Source: a virus
Reading direction: 5' to 3' (one strand)
DNA length: 64,000 nt
Virus record (IMG/VR): IMGVR_UViG_3300037851_000503
Coordinates: 2,767-66,766 of that record
Position numbers and translations under genes: made by a program. The notes beneath the pieces were generated by a model, which saw nothing but the letters and a program-made list of their open reading frames with translations, was not told the DNA's origin and ran no database searches. Below are positions 3,166-37,861 of the stretch, one piece after another. Position 1 is the stretch's first letter. The number at the start of each line of letters is the position of its first letter.

Positions 3166-5289
3166 ATGCCGACGACTCAAGGCGGGCAATCAGCAGCGGT
3201 AGTAACAGGAGCGGGAGCAGGTTCCAGTAGACCGTCCAAATATGAGGCTCCGTATCAGTGGGATGGTACGAGGCCAAGCGCTCAGCGTATCCTCTCCTGG
3301 ATGAATGAGTGTATTCAAGAGGGAGAGATCTTCCTTAGAGGACAGAGTGGGTATAGATTTGTCGATACCTCTCATCGAATCATGGCTGATATTGGTTTCG
3401 ATGAACTTCCTCGTACATTATCTAAGAACTCGAAAAACTTTGTTAAGAGGAATATAAGGGAGCTAGTGGGAACACTTGCTAATCCTCGTCCTATTGCTTC
3501 CTTTAAGACCGATAATAAAGATTGGGATGGACAGGCTGAGATTATAAATAAGGGATATCTTCACTGGTATCTGGCTGCCTTCGCGGATCGCAAGCTGAGG
3601 GAAGCTCTTCAATTTGCGGCGGTCGAGGGGACAGGATATCTGGTCATGGAATGGGACCCTGGTTACTGGGCTCCAGGAGATGGAGAGATATCTCTTCAAG
3701 CTCTAGGAGTTGATGCTGTTCTTCCTATCCAAATCTCTCCTGAGGATTGGGACCTCCAAAAAGCCTATGCTGTCATTATCCGGCGTCAATATCCCATCTT
3801 CCATGTGATGAGACGCTTTCCTCTTGCTGCCCATCTTATCTCTCCTGATGGAGAGGCGGTATCTAAGTGGAGAAGGTTAGTTAACAATCTGCTTGATAAG
3901 GTAACTCCGACAGTCCAGAATACCTATGGTACTAATAGAGGTTATCGGGGAGAAGACCCCGCAGGCAGACAGTTAGTAACCGTCTACGATATCTATATTC
4001 TCGATGGTCAGGTTAATATGTCTGAAGGCCCAATAAAGAAAGGGGTTTCAGGCTCTCCATGGGAATACAATGTCCCTTCCTATCGCTCTCCTATTCCTAC
4101 TGGAATAAACGATCCTTATACGGGAATGCCTATTACTCGTCAGGCGGACTACCATGACTCAAGGCTCTTTCCCTATCGCCGCCATATTACCGCCACTAGA
4201 ACTGCTATTCTCTATGATGATACGTCCAGGTGGTGGCATGGACAAGTACCCTTAGTTAAGTTCCGTCTTGACGATTGGCCGTTTGAGTATTGTGGAATCC
4301 CAAGTACCAAAGATCCAGCCAAGTCTCAGTCGATGTTCACTTCTCTCTGGAGAGCATATGATGATTCCGCCAATGCGCGCCTGCGTCCACCAGTAGGTTA
4401 CGATAAGGATAGGGTGAGCGCGGAGGCAGCTAAGATCGATCTAAGGGTGGGAGGACAGGTCATTGGAATGAGGAATATGATGGGAGAGCCCTTTAAACTC
4501 CTGGCTGATCCTCGTTACTACCAGATGGGACAAGACATCCTTCCTTTCCTGGAGCGGATCGAAGAGGGAGCTACCAAGCTGATGGGCCTTCATGACCTGA
4601 CAGCCATGGCTAAGGCGGCTCAAGTTCCGGGCGCTGACACTATTGAGAAGTTGGCTGAAATGGCTGGCCCTATTGCAACTGATATGTCACGTAACATGGA
4701 GGCATCGATCAGGGATGTAGGAGAGCTATGGAAGGCGATGTTCTTTGAGTTCTACAGTGTTAGGAAGAGATTCCAGATATTAGGAAGGGATGGAGTAACT
4801 AGAGAGGACTTTGACTTTGATCCTTCAACTCTTGTCCCTAGTAGCCTTGATCTTCCTGTCGTAGGTCGAGGGGGAACTAGGAGCGAGAGAGCAAGAGTTC
4901 ACATGAGAAACTTCCACTTCTCTATCGTTCCCAACTCTATCTATCAGATGACTCAGAGCACCAGGAGATTACTTCTCTTACAGCTTGGTAGGATGGGAAT
5001 TCCATTGTCTCCTATCTACCTGATGGAACAGTTCGATATCCCCAATCCTGAAAAGAGAGTGGAGGAGTTCTTTGAATATAAAGCGGAAGAGGCTCAGAAG
5101 ATGACTGAGATTCAGATGTTAGTCCAGGGAATGAATCCTCTAATGCAAATGGCTGGGGCTATGCAAGGAATGCTGAAGGGCGGGAATAGACAGGAGGGAA
5201 GACCTCCGAGTGGGCAGAAGCCTCCAAGGATGGAAGAAAAAACTGATGGAACAGGAGTTCCGACTAGGACGACTATTGCGGAATCTTAA
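3166..5289 (+). CDS. Portal protein (putative)
   Basis: 707-aa ORF directly downstream of the terminase large subunit; size and position are typical for a portal; RBS gagaggtatcat before the ATG. Confidence 0.5.
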   Translation: MPTTQGGQSAAVVTGAGAGSSRPSKYEAPYQWDGTRPSAQRILSWMNECIQEGEIFLRGQSGYRFVDTSHRIMADIGFDELPRTLSKNSKNFVKRNIRELVGTLANPRPIASFKTDNKDWDGQAEIINKGYLHWYLAAFADRKLREALQFAAVEGTGYLVMEWDPGYWAPGDGEISLQALGVDAVLPIQISPEDWDLQKAYAVIIRRQYPIFHVMRRFPLAAHLISPDGEAVSKWRRLVNNLLDKVTPTVQNTYGTNRGYRGEDPAGRQLVTVYDIYILDGQVNMSEGPIKKGVSGSPWEYNVPSYRSPIPTGINDPYTGMPITRQADYHDSRLFPYRRHITATRTAILYDDTSRWWHGQVPLVKFRLDDWPFEYCGIPSTKDPAKSQSMFTSLWRAYDDSANARLRPPVGYDKDRVSAEAAKIDLRVGGQVIGMRNMMGEPFKLLADPRYYQMGQDILPFLERIEEGATKLMGLHDLTAMAKAAQVPGADTIEKLAEMAGPIATDMSRNMEASIRDVGELWKAMFFEFYSVRKRFQILGRDGVTREDFDFDPSTLVPSSLDLPVVGRGGTRSERARVHMRNFHFSIVPNSIYQMTQSTRRLLLLQLGRMGIPLSPIYLMEQFDIPNPEKRVEEFFEYKAEEAQKMTEIQMLVQGMNPLMQMAGAMQGMLKGGNRQEGRPPSGQKPPRMEEKTDGTGVPTRTTIAES

Positions 5290-5569
5290 AGGTTCTATTA
5301 ATATAATCCTATTCATTTAGGATTATCCTTCTAACAGAAAGCTGGGGGAGATTGATGTCTCCCCCTTTTCTTTTAAGTATTGATGAGTACCTCAATACTT
5401 CCGCGATGTTGGATGTTATAAATAGTAGCTGTTGGATAGTGATCTTCTACGTACTCTACTATGTCCTTAACATTTCCAGCTACTATGCCTATTGTTTTAT
5501 TAGTGGCCCAGGTCTTCCCTTCCGGGGGCGGGATAGACAAATAGACCTGCCAAAACTTTAGTTCATCCA

Positions 5570-6043
5570 TTATTTTGTTAGCTCTCTAAGCTCTTTCAGA
5601 CGCTCATTGATCTTGGCTCTCTTTTCCTCAGCGGTGGCCAACTGCTCAGCCTGAAGCTCAAGACCTCTGATCTCTCTTAGCCTGTCAGCCCTTAGCTTCT
5701 CGCTAAGATCTCTACTACAGGCTCTTAGAGCCTCATCCAGTTCCTTAGGAACATCGTGACCGTTAGCCTTGATCTGGTTGGCAACCACCTGAAAGTATGC
5801 CTCAGCGATAATCAACTGAGGAATAGTGGCGGCGGTTCCGTACTCAATAGTCATAAAGCTCTTAACATACTGTCTCTCATAGGTATTCATCTTTTGCTCC
5901 CTCCTTTCCTTCATAATCTGATCTACTCTCTGTGGGGGAATTGCTCTCCCTGAGACATTTCGTCCTGGTCCTGACCAATATAGATCTTTCATTAGATCAG
6001 AAGCCAGCATTCTTGACAGTTCTTCCCAAGTCATATCAGGCAT
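5570..6043 (-). CDS. Hypothetical protein, coiled-coil C-terminus; last gene of the tRNA-rsr operon
   Basis: Overlaps the stop of the Ro60 gene by 8 bp on the same strand; no recognisable motif. Confidence 0.4.
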   Translation of the reverse strand: MPDMTWEELSRMLASDLMKDLYWSGPGRNVSGRAIPPQRVDQIMKERREQKMNTYERQYVKSFMTIEYGTAATIPQLIIAEAYFQVVANQIKANGHDVPKELDEALRACSRDLSEKLRADRLREIRGLELQAEQLATAEEKRAKINERLKELRELTK

Positions 6044-7526
6044 TAAGCACCTCCTCGATAGTAAGGAGAGGAACGTTTAAGATCTCCGTCAAGAGGCTGT
6101 ATTTATTGACTCTTAGTGTCTCAACGATGTTAGGAAGGCTATTATAGTCAACCTTTCCTCCTCTCACATCGAAGACCTCTATTCCATCCATGGACATAAT
6201 GGTAGGAAATTTAGGATCGGAGATTGCGTTCATGTCTCCATCCACGTTGAAGTGATAGACAGTCGGCTCCTTCCCATACTTATCTGAATACTTTCTATAA
6301 GCATGCACAAAGTATGGCGGCGAGTTATCTCCTCCATCCGAGACGATTGCTATCCCATCTACTTCCTCATTCATTGAGTCAAGGTAGGATAGTCCGCAAC
6401 CAATCGATGTTCCTTCTCCTGACTTTACATGTTTAGTCAGGTTATTGATCTGAAAGTAGTTCTTTCCTGTCACATCAAAAGGAGTAGGAGCGGTATTGAA
6501 GTAGATCAGCCATACCTTCCCACTAACTCTCTCAGTAATAAGAGAGGCTATTTTTCTAGCAAGCTCGATAGATGTGGACATACTACCTGAGGCATCTGCC
6601 AGTATGAGCCAGTTACCTTCAATCGATCCAAGTTGCTTTGTAGCATGAGCTTGCAAGTTAAGCAGACCATCGGCGAAGTATTCGCTTCTCTCAGCAGCGA
6701 TTCCCGCTTTAAGGACATTGAGCTTCTTGTCCTCTTTTGCTCTAAGAAGGGCAGCATTGTAAGCGGCCATAAGGACTGGATCGTTTTTCACTCCTAACTT
6801 TTCAAACATCTTGGAGTTAGTAACAATCTGGTTACCTGTAGCTCCCTCAAGTAACGCCAGAATAACATCCTTGTTCTTGATGTTACTCGTAGCTCCGACC
6901 ACTACCTGGAAAGGTATATCGTTCCCCAGAATTAGGGCCGCTGCCTCCTTGGCCGTTACCTTTCCTAACATAGCCACCTTCTCGAATACTGATCCGCTTG
7001 GATACTTTCCTTCAAAGAGAATCTCCTGCGCTCTTTTAGTCGGCTTATGATGGGACAGCCGATAAAGCCTCTTCATCGAGTCTCTATGTTGCAGGACAGT
7101 CTTGTCCCACCATTTAGGTTTCTGCTGTCTTACCTCAAGATAGCCATGAAGAGCTACTTCCAGGAGATCTCTAAAGCCGTTCTTTATTGGCTTTCCGCTC
7201 CTGGTTAGTTCCCTGGAGAAGTTATAAGCCCTAACCAGATCTCTAGGGGAAAGGGTAAGCAGATGCGCGATTGAATTCTCGGCCAGCGTTGCCTCATTCT
7301 TTCCCAGAACTCTAAGGCTAATAATAGGATAGGCGATCTTACTATCTCTTACCTTTCCTTTTATTCTATTCCATGAAATAAGATGGGCTAGAAGTTCAGG
7401 TTCAGCCCTGGCAGCCTGAAGTCCCATCTCTAGATATCCGTCCAACTTCCCATGCTCGATCTTCATTAGAGAGGCAATGAGATTCCTTCTCTCATATTCT
7501 TTTCTCTCTTCTAAGTTTCTTGCCAT
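6036..7526 (-). CDS. rsr: Ro60/Rsr ortholog (TROVE domain + vWA domain)
   Basis: Motifs match human Ro60 as recalled from memory: LYRLSHHKP vs LLRLSHLKP in the TROVE helix; vWA MIDAS ILADASGSM vs LLAVDVSASM; GEGTSIGCGL...AIVSDGGDN vs GGTDCSLPM...VFTDNET. N-terminal helical ~300 aa plus C-terminal vWA, total 496 aa. Confidence 0.75.
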   Translation of the reverse strand: MARNLEERKEYERRNLIASLMKIEHGKLDGYLEMGLQAARAEPELLAHLISWNRIKGKVRDSKIAYPIISLRVLGKNEATLAENSIAHLLTLSPRDLVRAYNFSRELTRSGKPIKNGFRDLLEVALHGYLEVRQQKPKWWDKTVLQHRDSMKRLYRLSHHKPTKRAQEILFEGKYPSGSVFEKVAMLGKVTAKEAAALILGNDIPFQVVVGATSNIKNKDVILALLEGATGNQIVTNSKMFEKLGVKNDPVLMAAYNAALLRAKEDKKLNVLKAGIAAERSEYFADGLLNLQAHATKQLGSIEGNWLILADASGSMSTSIELARKIASLITERVSGKVWLIYFNTAPTPFDVTGKNYFQINNLTKHVKSGEGTSIGCGLSYLDSMNEEVDGIAIVSDGGDNSPPYFVHAYRKYSDKYGKEPTVYHFNVDGDMNAISDPKFPTIMSMDGIEVFDVRGGKVDYNSLPNIVETLRVNKYSLLTEILNVPLLTIEEVLNA

Positions 7527-7544
7527 CCTTACTTTCTCCTTTCA

Positions 7545-7617
7545 TGGCTAGAGGGAGAGTTGAACTCCCGACACCTGGGTTTTCAGTCCAGTGCTCTACC
7601 ACCTGAGCTATCTAGCC
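7545..7617 (-). tRNA. tRNA-Phe (anticodon GAA)
   Basis: Manual cloverleaf: acceptor GGCTAGA/TCTAGCC, D arm GCTC..GAGC, anticodon loop CTGAAAA, T arm GGGAG-TTCAACT-CTCCC. Confidence 0.8.
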
Positions 7618-7661
7618 AATGCAATACAATACAATTTTCGACATATTAAATTGCAGTATAG

Positions 7662-7733
7662 AGCAGGCGATGGGACTCGAACCCACAATTCTCAGCTTGG
7701 AAGGCTGAAGCGATACCATTACGCTACGCCTGC
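7662..7733 (-). tRNA. tRNA-Gly (anticodon TCC)
   Basis: Acceptor GCAGGCG/CGCCTGC, anticodon stem TCAGC/GCTGA with loop CTTCCAA, T loop TTCGAGT. Confidence 0.75.
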
Positions 7734-7789
7734 AAAGTTAGGATAGGTCTGAGGGATTTGTTAGTCCGGCTTTGTTACCTATCCTAGAT

Positions 7790-7862
7790 AGCCCCAGGAG
7801 GACTTGAACCCCCGACCTTGCGGGTAGAAACCGCGTGCTCTAATCCATCTGAGCTATGGGGC
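7790..7862 (-). tRNA. tRNA-Arg (anticodon TCT)
   Basis: D arm GCTC-AGATGGATTA-GAGC, anticodon stem CGCGG/CCGCA loop TTTCTAC, T arm GGGGG-TTCAAGT-CCTCC. Confidence 0.75.
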
Positions 7863-7888
7863 CAAGAGGTTTGGTTATCCTATCCTAA

Positions 7889-7960
7889 TCTGGGTGGCAG
7901 GAATCGAACCCGCGTGTACTAGCTCCCAAAGCTAGCGGACAACCATTATCCCACACCCAG
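7889..7960 (-). tRNA. tRNA-Pro (anticodon TGG)
   Basis: Acceptor CTGGGTG/CACCCAG, anticodon stem CTAGC/GCTAG loop TTTGGGA, T arm GCGGG-TTCGATT-CCTGC. Confidence 0.7.
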
Positions 7961-8031
7961 AGACGATCTAGGGGAGACTTGAACTCTTTCGTAGAGGGGC
8001 CAGCAAATAGGACGATGGCACTCCCATTTAG

Positions 8032-8214
8032 TTAATCCTTCCAAGGCATTTTCATTGGGTCTTTATCAGTACCAATGGGATGGTAGTAGGTATAGAAACA
8101 TTCCTGACATAAATATAATTTGGGTCCGTATTGACAGGTTAGCATCTTTACCTTTTCCTCTTTCTCTCGAAAAGCCTTCCACCACTTCTTAAAATATTCA
8201 ATCGTTAATTTCAT
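8032..8214 (-). CDS. Hypothetical small protein (CxxC)
   Basis: 60-aa ORF, CQYG..CQEC, ends 4 bp inside the ArfB-like gene; weak. Confidence 0.2.
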   Translation of the reverse strand: MKLTIEYFKKWWKAFREKEEKVKMLTCQYGPKLYLCQECFYTYYHPIGTDKDPMKMPWKD

Positions 8215-8537
8215 TTAGGTAGATACTCTACTAAAAGATTCTCAGGACTCATCATCTCCTCAACTATCTCTTCAAGAGTCCTATTCATGCGCCTTCTAAC
8301 AACCTGCGCCCTACACCAGTTCTGAAACTCCTTAGTGTTAGCCATTCTCTGCCAAGCTGCCCTCTTATTCTGGATCTGGTGACGATGTTCTCTACTCTCT
8401 CCTCTAGCTCCGGAAGGATGATGGATGATCCTAACCCCACTCTCAGTCTTGTTCTGATGCTGTCCTCCCTTTCCTCCACTGCGAAAGGTCTGGACCTTGC
8501 AATCCTTAATTGTAACGCTGAAGACTAGATGTTTCAT
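8211..8537 (-). CDS. ArfB/ICT1-like peptidyl-tRNA hydrolase (class-I release-factor GGQ domain)
   Basis: SGGKGGQHQNKTESGVRIIHHPSG is the canonical RF-1/ArfB GGQ catalytic motif with the following VR(I/L)TH..G; basic tail; 108 aa. Confidence 0.7.
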   Translation of the reverse strand: MKHLVFSVTIKDCKVQTFRSGGKGGQHQNKTESGVRIIHHPSGARGESREHRHQIQNKRAAWQRMANTKEFQNWCRAQVVRRRMNRTLEEIVEEMMSPENLLVEYLPK

Positions 8538-8649
8538 AAATCAAAATAGGGGAATGCTCATCACTAGAACATTCCCCACGGCGGATAATAATTATTGAAG
8601 GCTAAGCGTAAAAGGATTTCGTTATTTGCCTTACCACTTAGGCTAACCC

Positions 8650-8745
8650 TCCACAAGAAAGCGGAGGGTCTAGGATTCGAACCTAGAGTCTCGGTTTTGG
8701 AGACCGAAGCATGTAATCTCTTTACTGGCCTTCAAATTTAAAATA
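8650..8745 (-). ncRNA. tRNA-like element: CCA-anticodon-like hairpin + canonical T arm + closed acceptor-like hairpin; atypical 5' half
   Basis: Minus-strand reading: TCGGT-CTCCAAA-ACCGA, then CTAGG-TTCGAAT-CCTAG, then the ACCCTCC-gctttcttgt-GGAGGGT hairpin. No canonical 5' acceptor strand or D arm was found by eye. Confidence 0.3.
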
Positions 8746-9149
8746 ACGATAGTGGCATAGCTTAAAGGGAGTTTTGGCTGTCCAGCCCCAGCAACACATC
8801 CATCAGATATGCTCCTGGCGGGTTGGACATGTAGTCTCTTCAATGGCCACTAAACTTGGCCCGAAGGGTAGGGCGTGCACGTACACCACTACGGATAAAT
8901 TGCGGATCTGCGAGTCGCACGCAGCGCAGTGGGCTTATGAGGCCCTCTTGGGCACTGACCCATCCGCAACAAATAATGATGATCGCTAAGCTCAAAGGGC
9001 TATGACCGCTTTGCTACCCCGGCATCAGATAGTCTCCCTCACTAACCTATCTTCCTCCATCACAAGTTAATAGACACAGAAAGGAAGACCATCTGGAGCC
9101 GGGGGCTGGAGTTGAACCAGCGTTGATGGCGATCAATCTCATTAGGTAC

Positions 9150-9220
9150 TCCTCAACCAGGACTCGAACCTGGGACATCTACGTTAACAGCGTAGCGCTC
9201 TACCAACTGAGCTATTGAGG
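9150..9220 (-). tRNA. tRNA-Asn (anticodon GTT)
   Basis: CCTCAAT-AGCTCAGTTGGTAGAGC-GCTACGCTGTTAACGTAG-ATGTC-CCAGGTTCGAGTCCTGG-TTGAGGA: perfect cloverleaf. Confidence 0.8.
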
Positions 9221-9244
9221 AATACAGAAGCTAAGCGACAAGGG

Positions 9245-9300
9245 ATTCCAGATTGCATAGATGGAATTGAACCACCAAATGAGCTATATGCATGTATTCT
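9245..9300 (-). ncRNA. Mini tRNA-like element (acceptor + D-arm half + T arm, no anticodon arm)
   Basis: Minus strand: ATGCATA-TA-GCTCATTTGG-TGG-TTCAATT-CCATC-TATGCAA. Confidence 0.25.
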
Positions 9301-9499
9301 CTTGTCTGGCCTCTGATCTCTTCAAATTCTCAAATAACTCTTTGTCCTCAACCGCAAGCACCTTTAGATAAAGCTCAAAAGCCTGTCTCGCATGATAGGA
9401 GACATTGTGCTTACCAGTAGGATCTTTAAGGGATCTGAGTTCTTCCCAGATCCCTTTATCTACCACAATTGTCACTCGTTTCGTCGTTTCCACGAGCAA
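9284..9499 (-). CDS. Ribbon-helix-helix (CopG/Arc-like) DNA-binding protein
   Basis: N-terminal KRVTIVVDKGIWEEL beta-strand plus helix pattern typical of RHH regulators; 71 aa. Confidence 0.4.
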   Translation of the reverse strand: MLVETTKRVTIVVDKGIWEELRSLKDPTGKHNVSYHARQAFELYLKVLAVEDKELFENLKRSEARQENTCI

Positions 9500-9694
9500 T
9501 TATACATACTCGTTCATACTCTGCAAGACCCTTTTTATTAAATATTTCTAATCCTTCTAAGTTATTCTATTGACTAATACTTAGATATTAAATAGAACTC
9601 TAAGTGAGGGAGCTTTCAGGTTCCTTGTTACATCCTTACTTCAGTGCTACGGGGGAGAGGGCAACTTCTCCTCCTTATTTGAAAGGTAATAAAG

Positions 9695-10054
9695 ATGCCA
9701 GTAATGCCACTAATGCCCGGAGGGGCTGATCAAATGGCGACTCCAATGCCAGGGGGTCCGGCAGGTGGAGCTTATCCGCCTTCGCCGACAGGTGCGGGGC
9801 CGTCAGGAGATCTTGCTTCGCTATTAGGAATTGGTGGAGTCCCTTCCATGGGTGGGGGAGTAGATCCTCTTCAGGGAGCGCTGGGACAATTCGACATGCT
9901 CGCGCAGATGATTAGTGATCTGGCGAGAGCATTCCCCGGATCGGAACAGATCGCATCCCAGATGATGGAAGCCCTCGACGCATGGCGTCAGCAGGTTTTG
10001 ATTATGGCAACTCCTCCTTCCAGCGCAATGCCGGGAGCGGATGCCATGATGTAA
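9695..10054 (+). CDS. Gly/Pro/Met-rich hypothetical protein (first gene of head module)
   Basis: RBS plus ATG; low-complexity PGG repeats; precedes the scaffold-like gene. Confidence 0.4.
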   Translation: MPVMPLMPGGADQMATPMPGGPAGGAYPPSPTGAGPSGDLASLLGIGGVPSMGGGVDPLQGALGQFDMLAQMISDLARAFPGSEQIASQMMEALDAWRQQVLIMATPPSSAMPGADAMM

Positions 10055-10147
10055 ATGCCTAAGTTACTAACCTCTTAAACCAACCCTTCCGATGGGAGTC
10101 CTACTAACGTAGATACCAACCCCGGCAGGGAGTCGAAAAGGAGTCTG

Positions 10148-11170
10148 ATGGCAAATGAAGCTATTGAGCGTGCGGTCCAATCTCTAATAGATAGTGGGCG
10201 GATCTCTCGCGATTTAAAAAACGAGTATGTCACTCATCTTGAGTCTCAGTTGCAAAATGAGATTCTTAGAGGAGCGGATTATACCAACAAGACTAAAGCT
10301 CTGGCGGCTGAGAAGAGACAAATAGAAGAGTCTCTGGCGCAGGAGAGAGCCAGACTGAATAGTGAAAGAGCTAAACTGGCCCAGTGGCAGGATCAGGTTT
10401 CAGGTCAGTTACAGGAATACGATAGGGTAATGAAGGAACTTCCTTCCCTAACTGCTAAGATTAGCGCCTATGAGCAAGCGCTGAACGACTTCCAGATTAT
10501 GGATAGGGTTCAAGTTCCCAACACCCCTGCTATTCCCTCGATTACTGACCGTAGAGAACCTCAGAGATCTCTTAATGAAAAGTCAATGAATCCAGCGGAT
10601 GTTCCATTCCTGACGAGAGATGCGGCAGCCGGTGCGCTTAGGGAGTTTGCTGTCCTCACCGGGAAGATGTCCAAGATTCAAGCTCAGCACCAGAAGCTAT
10701 TCAATGAACCTCTAGACGATGATTTGATCAGCCACTTCTTTGAGACGGGACAAGATCCTGAAGAACACTGGCGGGTTAAGTATAACGTCGAAGGAAAGAG
10801 GAACGAGATCGCAGCCAGGAATCGGGAAGCGGAGATTGCAAAGATGAGGGAGGATATTAGGACTGAGATTATGCAAAGTCTCGCTTTAGATCCTTCCAGG
10901 ATAGTCGGAGGTCAGGGACAGCAATATAAGGGAGGGCTTACTCCTGTACTTGAAAACTATGCTCAGTCTCGCGCTCTCGCCCATAACGGCATTGACCAAT
11001 CTCAACCAAAGGCCGACGACTTTATCCCTCCCGAAAAGAAGCCGGATATCGCAGCTTCCAGGGACCGTGTAAATCGGGCTGCTGAGTTATTTGCGAAGAA
11101 TTTCGATGTAGTTGGCAGACCTCTAACCGATCATGGTAGAGAGATGGCCAGAAAGTATTCTAGCGATTAG
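10148..11170 (+). CDS. Scaffolding-like coiled-coil protein
   Basis: 340 aa, highly charged heptad-like N-terminal half; located immediately upstream of the capsid candidate. Confidence 0.4.
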   Translation: MANEAIERAVQSLIDSGRISRDLKNEYVTHLESQLQNEILRGADYTNKTKALAAEKRQIEESLAQERARLNSERAKLAQWQDQVSGQLQEYDRVMKELPSLTAKISAYEQALNDFQIMDRVQVPNTPAIPSITDRREPQRSLNEKSMNPADVPFLTRDAAAGALREFAVLTGKMSKIQAQHQKLFNEPLDDDLISHFFETGQDPEEHWRVKYNVEGKRNEIAARNREAEIAKMREDIRTEIMQSLALDPSRIVGGQGQQYKGGLTPVLENYAQSRALAHNGIDQSQPKADDFIPPEKKPDIAASRDRVNRAAELFAKNFDVVGRPLTDHGREMARKYSSD

Positions 11171-11204
11171 TTATTCCCTCGCGGGAAACTTCCTGCTGGT
11201 TCTC

Positions 11205-11262
11205 CTTGCGAGTAACATAAAGTAACATAAGAGTAACATCCGAGTAACTTGATGTTACTTTG
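11205..11262 (+). promoter_or_regulatory. Cluster of 4 phased AGTAACAT motifs (+1 inverted copy) upstream of capsid gene
   Basis: gAGTAACATaaAGTAACATaagAGTAACATccgAGTAACTtgATGTTACT, spacing 10-11 bp. Confidence 0.5.
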
Positions 11263-11274
11263 AAAGGAGACAAA

Positions 11275-12471
11275 ATGCCTGATCCGATAGTGACAGCACT
11301 AACGGCAGTAACCAAGGAAGAGATCTGGCCTCGCCAGATTACTGACTCTTTCTTTAGGGCAATTCCATTCTTCTCATACCTGCGTGACAAAGCCCTGGTC
11401 ACTTTCTCTGGTATGACTTTCATGCAGTATCCCTTTCTGTTCCGCCCAATGATCGGAGGAGCTTACTCTCCCGGTCAGGCGTTCAACATCGATAAGGTTG
11501 ACTCGATTGCCGCTCTCCAGTTCAGAGAGAAGTACTATGAGGTCAACGTTACCGAGTTCAAGGAAGAGATTCAGGTTAGGAATAGAGGAGCCAACGCGGT
11601 CTTCTCCTTGCTTGATGCTGATCTGAAGAATGCAATGATGACTCTTTCGACCATCATTGCCATCTCGGCGTGGCGTCACGGTCAAGCGGCTGGCGGTACT
11701 GTCCTGGATGACAGATCCCTGGAGATCAACGGTCTGTCCGAGGCATTGAATGATGGTTTCCTTCCTTCGTTCGACGGAAACATCTTCTCTACTTATGGAG
11801 CGCAGGCCCGTAATGGCGCAGTCGGCGCAGCCCTCAATTCCAAGCCTTATTGGTTAGGTAACTCTAACGGAACTGCTGGTAAGATCACCTATGAGAGGCT
11901 TGAGGATATGTACCAGATTGCTTCTCAGGGTAATTTGAGTCCAGACCTGGGTGTTACTTCCAAGAGAGGAATGACTCTCATCAAGAACACTCTTCAGGTT
12001 CAGCAGCGCTTTATGCAGGAGTCGGACCCTCGCTATGGATTTGAGGGAGTCCTTCTCAATCGCATGAGAATCACCAAGGATGACTATGCGATGTCGGCTT
12101 CTCCTGGATTTGGAGGAACCGGAGCCAGCGATCCTATTCTTGGTAACTGGAACACGGATGGAACGGTTACATCTGGAGCTATTGTCGCAGGTATTGGACC
12201 TTTCAATACTGCTGCCCTGACTGCGGATCAGAGAGGTAACTTCCCAAGTGGCGCGGCCCAGAACTTGGAGGTTCGTGAAGTTATCTGGATGCTGAACACT
12301 GATACCTGGATTCTTCGGATCTCTGATGACGAGGAATTCCAGTTCGGATGGACCGGCTTTAAGCCTGGACAGGACAACACTAGAGTTTCAGGTCAGTCGC
12401 TCGCGGCTGTCAACCTGGAGACTCCAGCGGCCAACCGTCTGAATATTCAGGGTTACGGATTCAACAGCTAA
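11275..12471 (+). CDS. Major capsid protein (putative)
   Basis: ORF-track start 11260 is TTG inside an AGTAACAT repeat; the ATG at 11275 has RBS aaaggagacaaa. ~400 aa follows the scaffold-like gene, and the strongest motif cluster lies upstream. Confidence 0.5.
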   Translation: MPDPIVTALTAVTKEEIWPRQITDSFFRAIPFFSYLRDKALVTFSGMTFMQYPFLFRPMIGGAYSPGQAFNIDKVDSIAALQFREKYYEVNVTEFKEEIQVRNRGANAVFSLLDADLKNAMMTLSTIIAISAWRHGQAAGGTVLDDRSLEINGLSEALNDGFLPSFDGNIFSTYGAQARNGAVGAALNSKPYWLGNSNGTAGKITYERLEDMYQIASQGNLSPDLGVTSKRGMTLIKNTLQVQQRFMQESDPRYGFEGVLLNRMRITKDDYAMSASPGFGGTGASDPILGNWNTDGTVTSGAIVAGIGPFNTAALTADQRGNFPSGAAQNLEVREVIWMLNTDTWILRISDDEEFQFGWTGFKPGQDNTRVSGQSLAAVNLETPAANRLNIQGYGFNS

Positions 12472-34942: not shown

Positions 34943-37861
34943 TTATAGCTGCACCTCCTTCATAGATCCCATGTCATGGCCAATTGAAGCATCAACTCCA
35001 CAAATAAAACCTCCAGGACAGAGAGTAGGATTAGCCAACTCCATCACAGGAAGCTGAAGAATCCTGCTAACATTCTCTAGGCACTCGTCGGCAAGCTCAA
35101 TCGGAGGATGGAAGACCATTGCATCGTGAGGAAATAGAACCAACTCATACCTATTAGTATAGTCCAGGTCGGCTAGATCTCTCAGCATCTTTCTAAACAT
35201 TCCATGAGCATGATTGGCGGGAAGGAAGGCTAACGCCTTTTCCGCATCCTCACCTCTTGCCCTATACCACTCCCCCCTTTTGTTCTTTCTTCTGGCCCAT
35301 ACATGCCAGAACCATCGCCGCGCTCCCCAGACAGATTGAAGATATGGAGTCTTTCCCCTACCTATATCCAGAGACTCTAAAAGATTCTCCTGCCATGCGA
35401 ATGTCTTGGGATAGATTCTCTTAAGAAGGAAGAGAAGTTGTTCCGCCTGAGCCTCAGACTCAAAGTACTCCTCGTTCTCAAAGTACAACCGGCGAGCGCT
35501 TTGGCCGAAGTTAGTACCGTGGTTAAGAGGCTTAGCCTGCTCATCTCTTACCTTTTTGTACTTGCTCTTTATCTCCAAGAGATATTGCTTAAGATCGTAA
35601 TCGCTCATCTCAAGCGCTTTCTCGATCCCAGGATACTTTACCAACCATCCCGCGACATAACTATGGGGATCTAACTTTGCCGTCCGCCACTTCCTGTCGT
35701 CATTCGCCAGGGAAGCAGTCGTTAGATCATGGAAGGCTTTATAATCGAACTCGATCAGGAGATGCCCAGGCTCAGCGGCCACACATCTCCTAAATCCTTG
35801 AGCCAGATCTCCTCTCCGCTTGGGAAGCGCGAAGACGTTAGCTCCTCCTTTAGAAGAGTATTGCCATGTGGAATTAGTCTTAGCTACTACTCTCAATCTC
35901 CCGTCTATGCCGGGAACCCATCCTCCTTTAGCTGTCCCATCCTCCTTAATCTTCCCTGTATAGGAGTCTCTCATTTTCTCTATCGCCCGGATATCCCTGG
36001 ACAAGGCAATAATAGGATCTCCCGTCTCGGCTTGAAGCCTCTTCATTAACTTGTCGCCGGTCGTTTCCTTCCCTTCCTTAAAGGTCTTAGGAACCTCATA
36101 ATCCCGATACTTAATGTACCTTATCATCTGATCGGACGATCTAGGATTAAAGGGGATATGGCGATATAACCTGCTACCGTCTTCTGTTACTCTTAAATCT
36201 GGAAAGGTACTCAAGACTAACTCAAGAGTACCTTCCAGAGTACCATCGAGTAACATACGATAGATGTCAGTTACTTTGATTAGGTTCTTCTTAGTGCCCG
36301 TACCACGTTTATTAGGTACAGGATCAAATAGGTCAGGATGTCTAGCATAGACGAACTCTTTTATTTCTTCGGGAAGATTCGAGAATCCATCCTTGGTTGG
36401 TCCTCGTTGGTTGAGTTCGGGAGGAATGAGCGTGGAGATCTCGCTGAATTTTCCCTCCACACTGGAAGTTAATTCCTCCCGAAACTTATCCAGTCTTTCC
36501 TTATTGACTGGAACTCCTCTCTTTTCCCAGGGAACTTCGACCTTCTCCCTTACTTCCCTAATATATCTTTCGTATCCATCCCACATCCCTAGTCTATCTA
36601 GGTCAAGAGGAAGCTTTGCGCAAATGCGCACTAGAGCGCAGACATCTGCTACCCCATAAAGGACATCGTTCGTCCCCGCCAAATGTTTCCATGGCCACGT
36701 CCAGCCATAGTCTCCAGCTAGTTGCTGAAGATTTCCCAACAGATCTGATTGTAAGGCTCGCCGCATGGAGAGGGAGTCATAGATTGTGCCTCGTACTATT
36801 GCCCCCTCCCTCTCCAAGTGCGGGAGATCGAAGTGATCTCCATTGTGGAAGACCTTAGGATTCGGCAGCGCTAAAATCTTAAACGCTAGTTCTCTGATCT
36901 TGGGGTCTTTCCATTCTCCATAGACTCCCCAGGTATCGGAGATGGCGAATTGGATAGAAAGTATGGAAGATTGTCCAGGTATGGCATCAATAGGGTCATG
37001 TCCGCCCTTGTCACAGGCTTGCTCAACGTCTGCGGATTCTCCGTCGCCTCCTTCATCCATTCCTCCCAGGTCACCGTCTCTTCCAAGTTCGATAAGCTCA
37101 TCCTCAATTCCTTCCTTTGAATAAGGTGTCTCAATGTCCGAGGCAATCCAAACCTCAGGATCTTCGCTAGCCTCTTTATATAGACGCTCTAGGGCAGCGA
37201 CTCCTTCCAACGCTTCTATCTCGGTCGAAGGGTCGATAACATATGTTAGGCGTCCCGCAGCGGCAGATCTAGCTGCATTGAGATCTTTGATGAGGAGTCC
37301 AAGGTACTTGGTGTTTCCTCTGATGATGAACGCTGGGTGGAAGCTTGGAATTGTGACGATCCCATTTGGGCCAGGAAGTGGATAACCTCGTATGTAAGTA
37401 ATGGAGCGCTTGCCTCCATGGAATCCAGTAAGCTCTCTAATAGAGATCGAGCCGAGAGAAAGAATTGCTCTTGGCTTAAGTTCTTCGATAGCTCGATTGA
37501 GATATTGACGACAATGGTCGATTGCTTCTCTTTCATATTCGGCTCCAGCTAGTACATTATTTGGAGGACGACACCTTAAGATGTTAGTAATCCAGAAGTC
37601 GTCTCTCTTCATCCCTCCAAGATCTATGGCTTTCTGGAGAATAGACCCGGCCTGAGCGTGAGGACGGAACGGAAGCGCTTCCAAGTCTTCTTCCTTCCCA
37701 CTAGCTTCTCCTATGATCATTACCCCAGAATAACCGTTACCCTCGATACGGGTAAACTTGGTTCCACTTGTACATCCTCTCTCATGAAGAGGGCAACCTT
37801 TACATTCAGGTTTGAGAAAATTAACTCCCATCCAACTCCTCCCTATAGGAGAATTCTCCAT
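34943..37861 (-). CDS. Family-A DNA polymerase with N-terminal family-4 uracil-DNA-glycosylase-like domain and 3'-5' exonuclease domain
   Basis: UDG4-like: Cys cluster CKGCPLHERGC, IIGEASGKEED...PFRPHAQAGSIL, HPAFIIR. Exonuclease: SDIETPY, HNGDHFDLPHL, YGVADV. PolA motif A LIEFDYKAFH, motif B KPLNHGTNFGQSARRL, motif C LFPHDAMVFH. Confidence 0.75.
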   Translation of the reverse strand: MENSPIGRSWMGVNFLKPECKGCPLHERGCTSGTKFTRIEGNGYSGVMIIGEASGKEEDLEALPFRPHAQAGSILQKAIDLGGMKRDDFWITNILRCRPPNNVLAGAEYEREAIDHCRQYLNRAIEELKPRAILSLGSISIRELTGFHGGKRSITYIRGYPLPGPNGIVTIPSFHPAFIIRGNTKYLGLLIKDLNAARSAAAGRLTYVIDPSTEIEALEGVAALERLYKEASEDPEVWIASDIETPYSKEGIEDELIELGRDGDLGGMDEGGDGESADVEQACDKGGHDPIDAIPGQSSILSIQFAISDTWGVYGEWKDPKIRELAFKILALPNPKVFHNGDHFDLPHLEREGAIVRGTIYDSLSMRRALQSDLLGNLQQLAGDYGWTWPWKHLAGTNDVLYGVADVCALVRICAKLPLDLDRLGMWDGYERYIREVREKVEVPWEKRGVPVNKERLDKFREELTSSVEGKFSEISTLIPPELNQRGPTKDGFSNLPEEIKEFVYARHPDLFDPVPNKRGTGTKKNLIKVTDIYRMLLDGTLEGTLELVLSTFPDLRVTEDGSRLYRHIPFNPRSSDQMIRYIKYRDYEVPKTFKEGKETTGDKLMKRLQAETGDPIIALSRDIRAIEKMRDSYTGKIKEDGTAKGGWVPGIDGRLRVVAKTNSTWQYSSKGGANVFALPKRRGDLAQGFRRCVAAEPGHLLIEFDYKAFHDLTTASLANDDRKWRTAKLDPHSYVAGWLVKYPGIEKALEMSDYDLKQYLLEIKSKYKKVRDEQAKPLNHGTNFGQSARRLYFENEEYFESEAQAEQLLFLLKRIYPKTFAWQENLLESLDIGRGKTPYLQSVWGARRWFWHVWARRKNKRGEWYRARGEDAEKALAFLPANHAHGMFRKMLRDLADLDYTNRYELVLFPHDAMVFHPPIELADECLENVSRILQLPVMELANPTLCPGGFICGVDASIGHDMGSMKEVQL

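Follow-up and report, generated by a model that had tools for sequence, protein, structure and literature searches.

Known rescue factors built on the Gly-Gly-Gln (GGQ) domain find the ribosome by a decoding-site domain, a basic tail, permanent integration or a partner protein. ArfB and CgPrfH carry a basic C-terminal tail, PrfH has a ribosomal RNA (rRNA)-recognition domain, ICT1 forms an integral part of the ribosome, and mtRF-R works with a partner protein (PMC12829566). The mechanism of PrfH with RtcB2 is established (PMC9304027, PMC9223846), and a review of release-factor evolution makes no mention of phages (PMC6514570). Genes for RF-1, Pth and transfer-messenger RNA (tmRNA) have been described inside mycobacterial transfer RNA (tRNA) arrays, where extra rescue capacity was suggested (Morgado and Vicente 2018; PMC5966550), and a survey of jumbo phages counts phage tRNAs, RNA ligases, peptidyl-tRNA hydrolases and TROVE proteins that have a tRNA-like partner among the cargo for repair and rescue (PMC7824862). 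Here we describe a stand-alone GGQ gene in a stretch of 64,000 nucleotides (hereafter the window; positions 2,767 to 66,766 of IMG/VR record IMGVR_UViG_3300037851_000503) from an uncultured phage of approximately 67 kb, in which region 5000..12000 has no nucleotide similarity to any deposited phage. The gene lies in an island with tRNAs, a Ro60-like neighbour and a structured RNA (Table 1), and it is a new, divergent member of a known, already annotated and functionally uncharacterised family.

The original prediction had called this gene an ArfB/ICT1-like peptidyl-tRNA hydrolase, of a size typical of stand-alone rescue factors, and had proposed a profile search for the RF-1 domain as its check. 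The open reading frame (ORF) encodes 108 residues with an intact GGQ in the segment SGGKGGQHQNKTESGVRIIHHPSG (residues 20-43; nucleotides 8409..8480), and the Pfam RF-1 model (PF00472) matched residues 7-68 at 64.5 bits (E=1.1e-17; gathering cutoff 35), which bears out both the size and the domain. Among phage families the protein belongs to PHROG 3122, named "RF-1 domain peptide chain release factor", which aligned over residues 2-104 with profile positions 21-120 of 136 (105.5 bits, E=4.7e-30). GGQ was invariant in 120 of the 120 best homologues as well as in alignment A1, built from 36 members of the family, and other release-factor signature residues were also conserved (F18, G21-G22, G24-Q26, N29, R36, H39, S42, G46, Q54, N57, K58). 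An identical protein is recorded from two metagenomes, and no obvious Shine-Dalgarno sequence precedes its ATG. The GGQ motif is not a chance match; the ORF is real and its RF-1/GGQ domain is intact.

The AlphaFold2 model of the protein had a mean predicted local distance difference test score (pLDDT) of 85, and its best structural matches were RF1, RF2, mtRF1a and PrfH in ribosome-bound form; the GGQ core superposed on RF2 in the peptidyl-transferase centre (6c4h_v) at 2.2 A over 58 columns. On the ranking of the profile matches, the RF1/RF2 signatures and an acidic C-terminal segment, the product is a domain 3 of the RF1/RF2/PrfH type joined to a family-specific extension. Of domain 3 it retains a beta-strand, the GGQ loop, helix alpha7 and the beta-hairpin with HxP[ST]G. 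The extension comprises approximately 40 residues, is helical in the model and has an acidic end; from residue 88 onwards the net charge is -5 in the window protein, with a family median of -4.5 and a range of -7 to 0. Within this part, which has no counterpart in release factors, F71, W74, M96 and E104 are invariant or nearly so.

Among known proteins, domain 3 of RF1 and RF2, together with mtRF1 and mtRF1a, gave the best sequence and fold matches, with the motifs FR-SGG-GGQ-xNK, RIxHxP[ST]G and ERSQxxNKxxA in common. Searched with the A1 profile, the sequences in the PDB ranked as RF1, RF2 and mtRF1 (55-59 bits), PrfH (47-51), C12orf65 (26-27), ArfB (23-24) and ICT1 (approximately 17). The NCBIfam prfA, prfB and prfH models each aligned to the GGQ region at 54-62 bits, far under their full-length cutoffs, and those for prfA and prfB did so solely through their own GGQ regions (model positions 210-281; cutoffs 370-423). 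Domains 1, 2 and 4 of RF1 and RF2 are missing from the window protein, and with them the PxT/SPF codon reader, the switch loop and the RF3-interacting domain, so it cannot be a stop-codon-specific termination factor. Membership of the RF1/RF2 termination factors was accordingly rejected: the codon-recognition superdomain 2/4 is absent, and 108 residues leave no room for it.

Membership of the ArfB/ICT1 family was tried and rejected; model scores, the ranking by fold, topology and the charge of the tail all speak against it. The NCBIfam ArfB model (NF006718) reached 23.7 bits against a cutoff of 100 and covered residues 8-40 only, the ArfB chains in the PDB aligned to the A1 profile at positions 13-36 only, that is, at the GGQ loop, and ArfB and ICT1 ranked lowest among all comparisons by sequence and by fold. 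ArfB and ICT1 have an insertion after the first strand that follows GGQ and lack the HxP[ST]G hairpin, whereas the window protein shows the reverse, with a tight release-factor-type hairpin and no insertion. The C-terminal tail of ArfB is basic and senses the messenger RNA (mRNA) channel; its net charge in E. coli is approximately +13, and the C-terminus of the window protein is acidic. The family part of the earlier label is thus largely refuted, and what stands of it is a functional analogy with ArfB (YaeJ) and ICT1 (mL62), namely a stand-alone GGQ domain of similar size with codon-independent peptide release.

The family is large. In a collection clustered at 90% identity, 1782 homologues were found at E<=1e-5, and the 120 best were all 104-149 residues long; a search at 50% identity, covering 1.84 billion representatives, returned 93 clusters at E<=1e-30 and 1583 at E<=1e-10, the best 150 of which were all short proteins. 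Among deposited phages, 259 records matched, 206 of them mycobacteriophages, and these genes are already annotated "RF-1 peptide chain release factor". The family is therefore not new as an annotation, since it is named in phage databases and its placement in tRNA arrays is published. On cellular contigs, sampled as one genome per species, a single locus of the 80 best (Peptococcaceae CEB3) matched over the full length, and the remaining best loci were RF1/RF2 genes in which the match was confined to the GGQ core. The distribution of the family is virus-associated. Translated-search hits in records labelled as phages of Listeria, Salmonella, Staphylococcus and Acinetobacter were considered as members and rejected as matches to the GGQ core only; the inspected rows covered 47-66% of the query and one was annotated prfB, which makes these records look like cellular RF1/RF2 genes.

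We think it reasonably likely that the protein carries out codon-independent peptidyl-tRNA hydrolysis on ribosomes stalled during infection. It would enter the A site of a stalled host ribosome and place the GGQ loop in the peptidyl-transferase centre, where peptidyl-tRNA would be hydrolysed without codon reading; the nascent chain would be released and the ribosome made reusable, and the phage would in this way still have ribosomes to use when damage or shortage affects tRNAs, rRNA or mRNA. The gene would then be accessory cargo carried along with genes for translation maintenance and the response to RNA damage, its companions being tRNAs, a tRNA-like Y RNA and Ro60 in the window, and also RtcB, Rnl-type ligases, PTH2 and tmRNA in relatives. 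That the protein is catalytically active on the ribosome, and that it is linked to attack by host nucleases, is inferred.

The genomic company of the gene was surveyed in 80 IMG/VR viral loci (labelled L with a number) that carry it and were the best matches; for ligases, PTH2 and exoribonucleases, Pfam was run on one representative per cluster. tRNA genes were found within 8 kb of the GGQ gene at 38 of the 80 loci, within 1 kb at 26 and within 300 nucleotides at 16, and tmRNA was present at seven loci and RtcB or its remnants at nine. RtcB adjoins the GGQ gene in at least three lineages (L002, L007, L008, L011, L037, L043), separated from it in L007 by one ORF of 101 residues and accompanied in L011 by an RNA ligase and a phosphatase-like gene. 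Immediately downstream of the GGQ gene, L006 has an RNA_ligase gene (PF09414) whose clustered homologues are in L009 and L011; L028 carries a gene for a PTH2-like hydrolase, which has clustered homologues in L006, L026 and L060; and an Rv2179c-like 3'-5' exoribonuclease is encoded in L073, with clustered homologues in L078, L079 and L085. In the prophage prophiGD54-2, the GGQ gene sits inside an array of more than 20 tRNAs that includes tmRNA, approximately 200 nucleotides from an RtcB-like ligase. The neighbours RtcB, RNA ligase, PTH2 and tmRNA strengthen the case for the rescue of stalled ribosomes after RNA damage, which is plausible.

Three of these loci also carry tRNAs with a CUA anticodon, reported by ARAGORN as tRNA-Pyl and of the amber-suppressor type (L026, 9287-9365; L028, 8982-9059; L060, 7112-7186). 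They lie approximately 1-2 kb from the GGQ gene, adjoining the PTH2-like gene in L028, and their occurrence near PTH2-like genes hints at stop-codon recoding in the three phages.

Several observations weigh against ribosome rescue as the function. Every characterised stand-alone or truncated GGQ rescue factor uses a targeting element that is absent here (PMC12829566), and the window protein has neither a decoding-site domain nor a basic tail. At 42 of the 80 viral loci, no tRNA was found within 8 kb. No protein partner is conserved: when ORFs within 4 kb were clustered across 81 loci, no cluster except the GGQ family itself occurred in more than eight. Cluster C mycobacteriophages place the gene between DnaE and RecA and not near tRNAs, and the window has no RtcB by translated search with phage RtcB (best E=0.14). 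The searchable literature yielded no experimental work on any family member.

A more specific explanation, which we consider unlikely, is that the protein acts as PrfH does, releasing peptides specifically from ribosomes whose rRNA or A-site tRNA a nuclease of the host or of a competitor has cut, with an RNA ligase then repairing the RNA, as bacterial PrfH does with RtcB2. The likeness to PrfH includes a GGQ domain derived from RF2, relatives of the window gene that recurrently adjoin RtcB (in mycobacterial prophages and in the unrelated metagenomic phages L007, L008 and L011) and a proposed rescue after RNA damage; PrfH structures are among the best fold matches, and the NCBIfam PrfH model aligned residues 10-86 with positions 105-179 of 200 at 59.3 bits. 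That score is far under the cutoff of 166.65. PrfH has approximately 200-230 residues, and its N-terminal domain, a homologue of domains 2 and 4 of RF2, recognises rRNA and reads the cleaved decoding site; this domain is wholly absent from the window protein, which starts approximately 10 residues before the GGQ domain. For this reason PrfH membership was rejected; moreover, neither RtcB nor any other ligase was detected in the window, and most loci of the family likewise have none.

Less probable still is an activity like that of mtRF-R (C12orf65) with MTRES1, in which the protein would act on split large subunits bearing peptidyl-tRNA and not on 70S ribosomes, possibly with a host S4-domain partner such as Hsp15 or RqcP. 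Both are small proteins of approximately 110-160 residues with a GGQ domain, a helical C-terminal extension and no decoding-site module, and a weak collinear full-length alignment to C12orf65 is the sole support for this explanation. By sequence and fold the window protein is clearly nearer to RF1, RF2 and PrfH, the similarity to C12orf65 being much weaker than that to RF1/RF2, and the end of its extension is acidic. Clustering of the neighbouring ORFs revealed no MTRES1-like, Hsp15-like or other S4-domain gene and no other conserved partner near the GGQ gene.

It is very unlikely that the protein is not a rescue factor at all, being either what is left, without function, of a prfA or prfB gene captured from a host or an agent of interference with host translation, which could operate by premature chain release, by blocking of the A site or by titration of the PrmC methyltransferase. 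Its closest cellular relatives are indeed domain 3 of RF1 and RF2, no targeting module is evident and its neighbours vary among phages. Conservation over the full length, including the C-terminal part that is foreign to release factors, across hundreds of 50%-identity clusters makes a decayed host fragment unlikely, and its repeated occurrence alongside tRNAs, ligases, PTH2 and tmRNA speaks for a role in sustaining translation and not in shutting it off. Least credible of all is a true ArfB/ICT1-type factor, whose C-terminal tail would probe the empty mRNA channel of non-stop ribosomes and license the GGQ domain: the similar size, the stand-alone domain, the helical C-terminal part and the weak ArfB model match agree with it, whereas the model score, hairpin topology and tail charge given above do not.

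Returning to the proposed rescue of stalled ribosomes, the surroundings of the gene in the window are those of a translation and RNA-quality-control island, as the original prediction had it. Six tRNAs called by ARAGORN on the same strand flank the GGQ gene over 7544..9222, which upholds the claimed tRNA array; the nearest are tRNA-Pro, 250 nucleotides downstream, and tRNA-Met, 362 nucleotides upstream. Five of the six are strong Rfam tRNA matches, and tRNA-Met has no Rfam tRNA match at E<=1; this element may be a degenerate or atypical tRNA-like element. The further claim of a Ro60 gene in the island holds at the level of fold. The AlphaFold2 model of the 496-residue neighbour (pLDDT 86.6) is helical over residues 1-296 and then adopts a vWA fold, in keeping with the Ro60 architecture of a ring of HEAT-like helical repeats before a vWA domain, and the top 13 matches of a Foldseek search of the PDB were all full-length Ro60 proteins (template modelling scores 0.55-0.63, E 1e-9 to 1e-6), including those of Thermus phage phiLo, Xenopus, human and D. 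radiodurans (Rsr). Identification by sequence failed, with a profile match against the PDB at E=0.044 and no match to Pfam TROVE in this protein or in 28 homologues scanned. We conclude that the neighbour is, in its predicted fold, a full-length Ro60, and, given the lack of a TROVE match, routine annotation of domains would overlook this lineage of phage Ro60.

The original prediction had overlooked one component of the island, a conserved structured RNA between tRNA-Met and the GGQ gene, just upstream of the latter, which resembles Y RNAs of the YrlA type. Its 5' and 3' ends pair in a closing stem, and its other parts are a variable hairpin, a T-arm (GGUUCGAAUCC), a stem rich in GC and a hairpin like a D-arm. 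The Rfam YrlA model (RF02553) gave a partial match at 21.8 bits against a cutoff of 69, and full-length YrlA matches, also under the cutoff, were found in L089, L131 and L133 (36.8-40.5 bits); L089 has two such elements, this match (4358-4469) and, apart from it, the homologue of the window RNA (4107-4251). At a minimum of nine loci in related phages (L086, L088-L092, L095, L130, L150), the Ro60 gene has a full-length homologue of the window RNA upstream of it (nhmmer E down to 7e-14). Compensatory changes preserve 17 of the 20 pairs of the consensus fold, and the sequences of the T-loop and D-loop are invariant. Y RNAs beside phage Ro60 genes are already known (PMC4201824).

What is new is the recurring order of Y-like RNA, GGQ gene and Ro60 gene. 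The closest relatives that have the GGQ gene (L088, L089, L092-094) share it, with the GGQ gene abutting or overlapping Ro60; the three elements span 4225-6572 in L088, 4107-6482 in L089 and 3418-5545 in L092. In the window, four tRNAs and an ORF of 60 residues are inserted between GGQ and Ro60. Other close relatives (L086, L090, L091) are without the GGQ gene, which is therefore optional, and in more distant phages (L131-133, L136, L150) it follows Ro60 by 400-700 nucleotides. The GGQ gene was present within 4 kb in 11 of 80 Ro60 loci and the Ro60 family of the window in none of the 80 best GGQ loci, so the link between the two genes is lineage-restricted, and it may in part reflect the tendency of both to lodge in tRNA islands. 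The passages of the jumbo-phage survey on these genes do not mention this order (PMC7824862). It is conceivable, though improbable, that the Y-like RNA, the GGQ protein and Ro60 form a phage ribonucleoprotein machine for ribosome quality control, in which the Y RNA, Ro60 or both would bring the GGQ domain to stalled or damaged ribosomes. If true, targeting of this kind would be a third way for a GGQ domain to reach the ribosome, after the decoding-site domain and the basic tail, and tmRNA with SmpB would be a loose analogue of such a division of labour between protein and RNA.

Table 1. Positions of the island's features in the window
Feature	Coordinates	Strand	Basis and remarks
157-residue ORF overlapping the Ro60 stop codon	5570..6043	minus	ORF list; no significant Pfam or PHROG family
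Ro60 (TROVE + vWA) orthologue, 496 residues	6036..7526	minus	Predicted fold
Four tRNA genes (Phe-GAA, Gly-UCC, Arg-UCU, Pro-UGG) between GGQ and Ro60	7544..7961	minus	ARAGORN; Rfam tRNA 57.7-68.9 bits
Putative Cys-rich 60-residue ORF (C27, C36, C39, H45)	8032..8214	minus	ATG overlaps the GGQ stop codon
Stand-alone GGQ (RF-1 domain) protein, PHROG 3122 member	8211..8537	minus	ATG-to-stop ORF, 108 residues
GGQ codons, residues 24-26 (catalytic motif of class-I release factors)	8460..8468	minus	Read directly from the sequence
Terminator-like hairpin, 11-bp stem followed by a U-run	8549..8577	minus	Consensus scan only; ends 12 nucleotides before the GGQ start codon
Conserved structured RNA resembling YrlA-type Y RNA	8595..8745	minus	Partial Rfam tRNA and YrlA matches; minimum-free-energy fold
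Doubtful tRNA-Met(CAT)	8899..8969	minus	ARAGORN; upstream of the Y-like RNA
Robust tRNA-Asn	9148..9222	minus	ARAGORN and Rfam; upstream of the Y-like RNA

Several smaller elements complete the island. Gene calls for the same phage in two metagenomes include the 60-residue ORF, which has no Pfam or PHROG family and gave no tblastn match in the 80 GGQ loci. The hairpin upstream of the GGQ start codon could terminate the transcript of the Y-like RNA or throttle expression of the GGQ gene. A small ORF occupies the same position as the 157-residue ORF in related phages (gene calls in L086, L088, L089 and L090). The island is flanked by a P22-like portal ORF (3166..5289, weak Pfam match) and a scaffold-like ORF (10148..11170, weak PHROG match), both on the strand opposite to it; the placement in a virion-gene region that had been proposed is plausible. 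Elsewhere in the window, a second tRNA cluster lies approximately 50 kb away (58849..60186, minus strand; Ile-GAT twice, His-GTG and Ile-TAT), and an ORF of 972 residues (34943..37861, minus strand) encodes a domain of the uracil-DNA-glycosylase superfamily (residues 44-185) together with a family A DNA polymerase region.

The family has, in recognisable form, none of the four means of targeting used by the known factors, although its conservation is strong. The genes with which it keeps company are those by which phages withstand attacks on tRNA and rRNA. If its target were demonstrated, a new mechanism of rescue would be added to those known, and phage tRNA islands would gain a likely function in counter-defence. 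For the window itself the value is modest, and the most useful by-product is the recurring order of Y-like RNA, GGQ and Ro60.

Set beside the cargo described in the jumbo-phage survey, the island has the same gene company and would follow the same proposed logic, in which translation is kept running under nuclease attack; in its passages on this cargo, the survey names PTH2, and not a GGQ-domain protein, as the peptidyl-tRNA hydrolase, and the window phage is not a jumbo phage (PMC7824862). The closest described genes are those of PHROG 3122, exemplified by Mycobacterium phages Colt (gp201) and Catera (gp202), prophiGD54-2 (gp125) and the Tunturiibacter phages Tunturi_3 and Tunturi_4, which encode proteins of the same size with the same GGQ loop and C-terminal extension, at 47-59% identity over residues 2-105. 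From these the window copy differs in its setting, as it lies not beside RtcB or between DnaE and RecA but between a Y-like RNA and Ro60.

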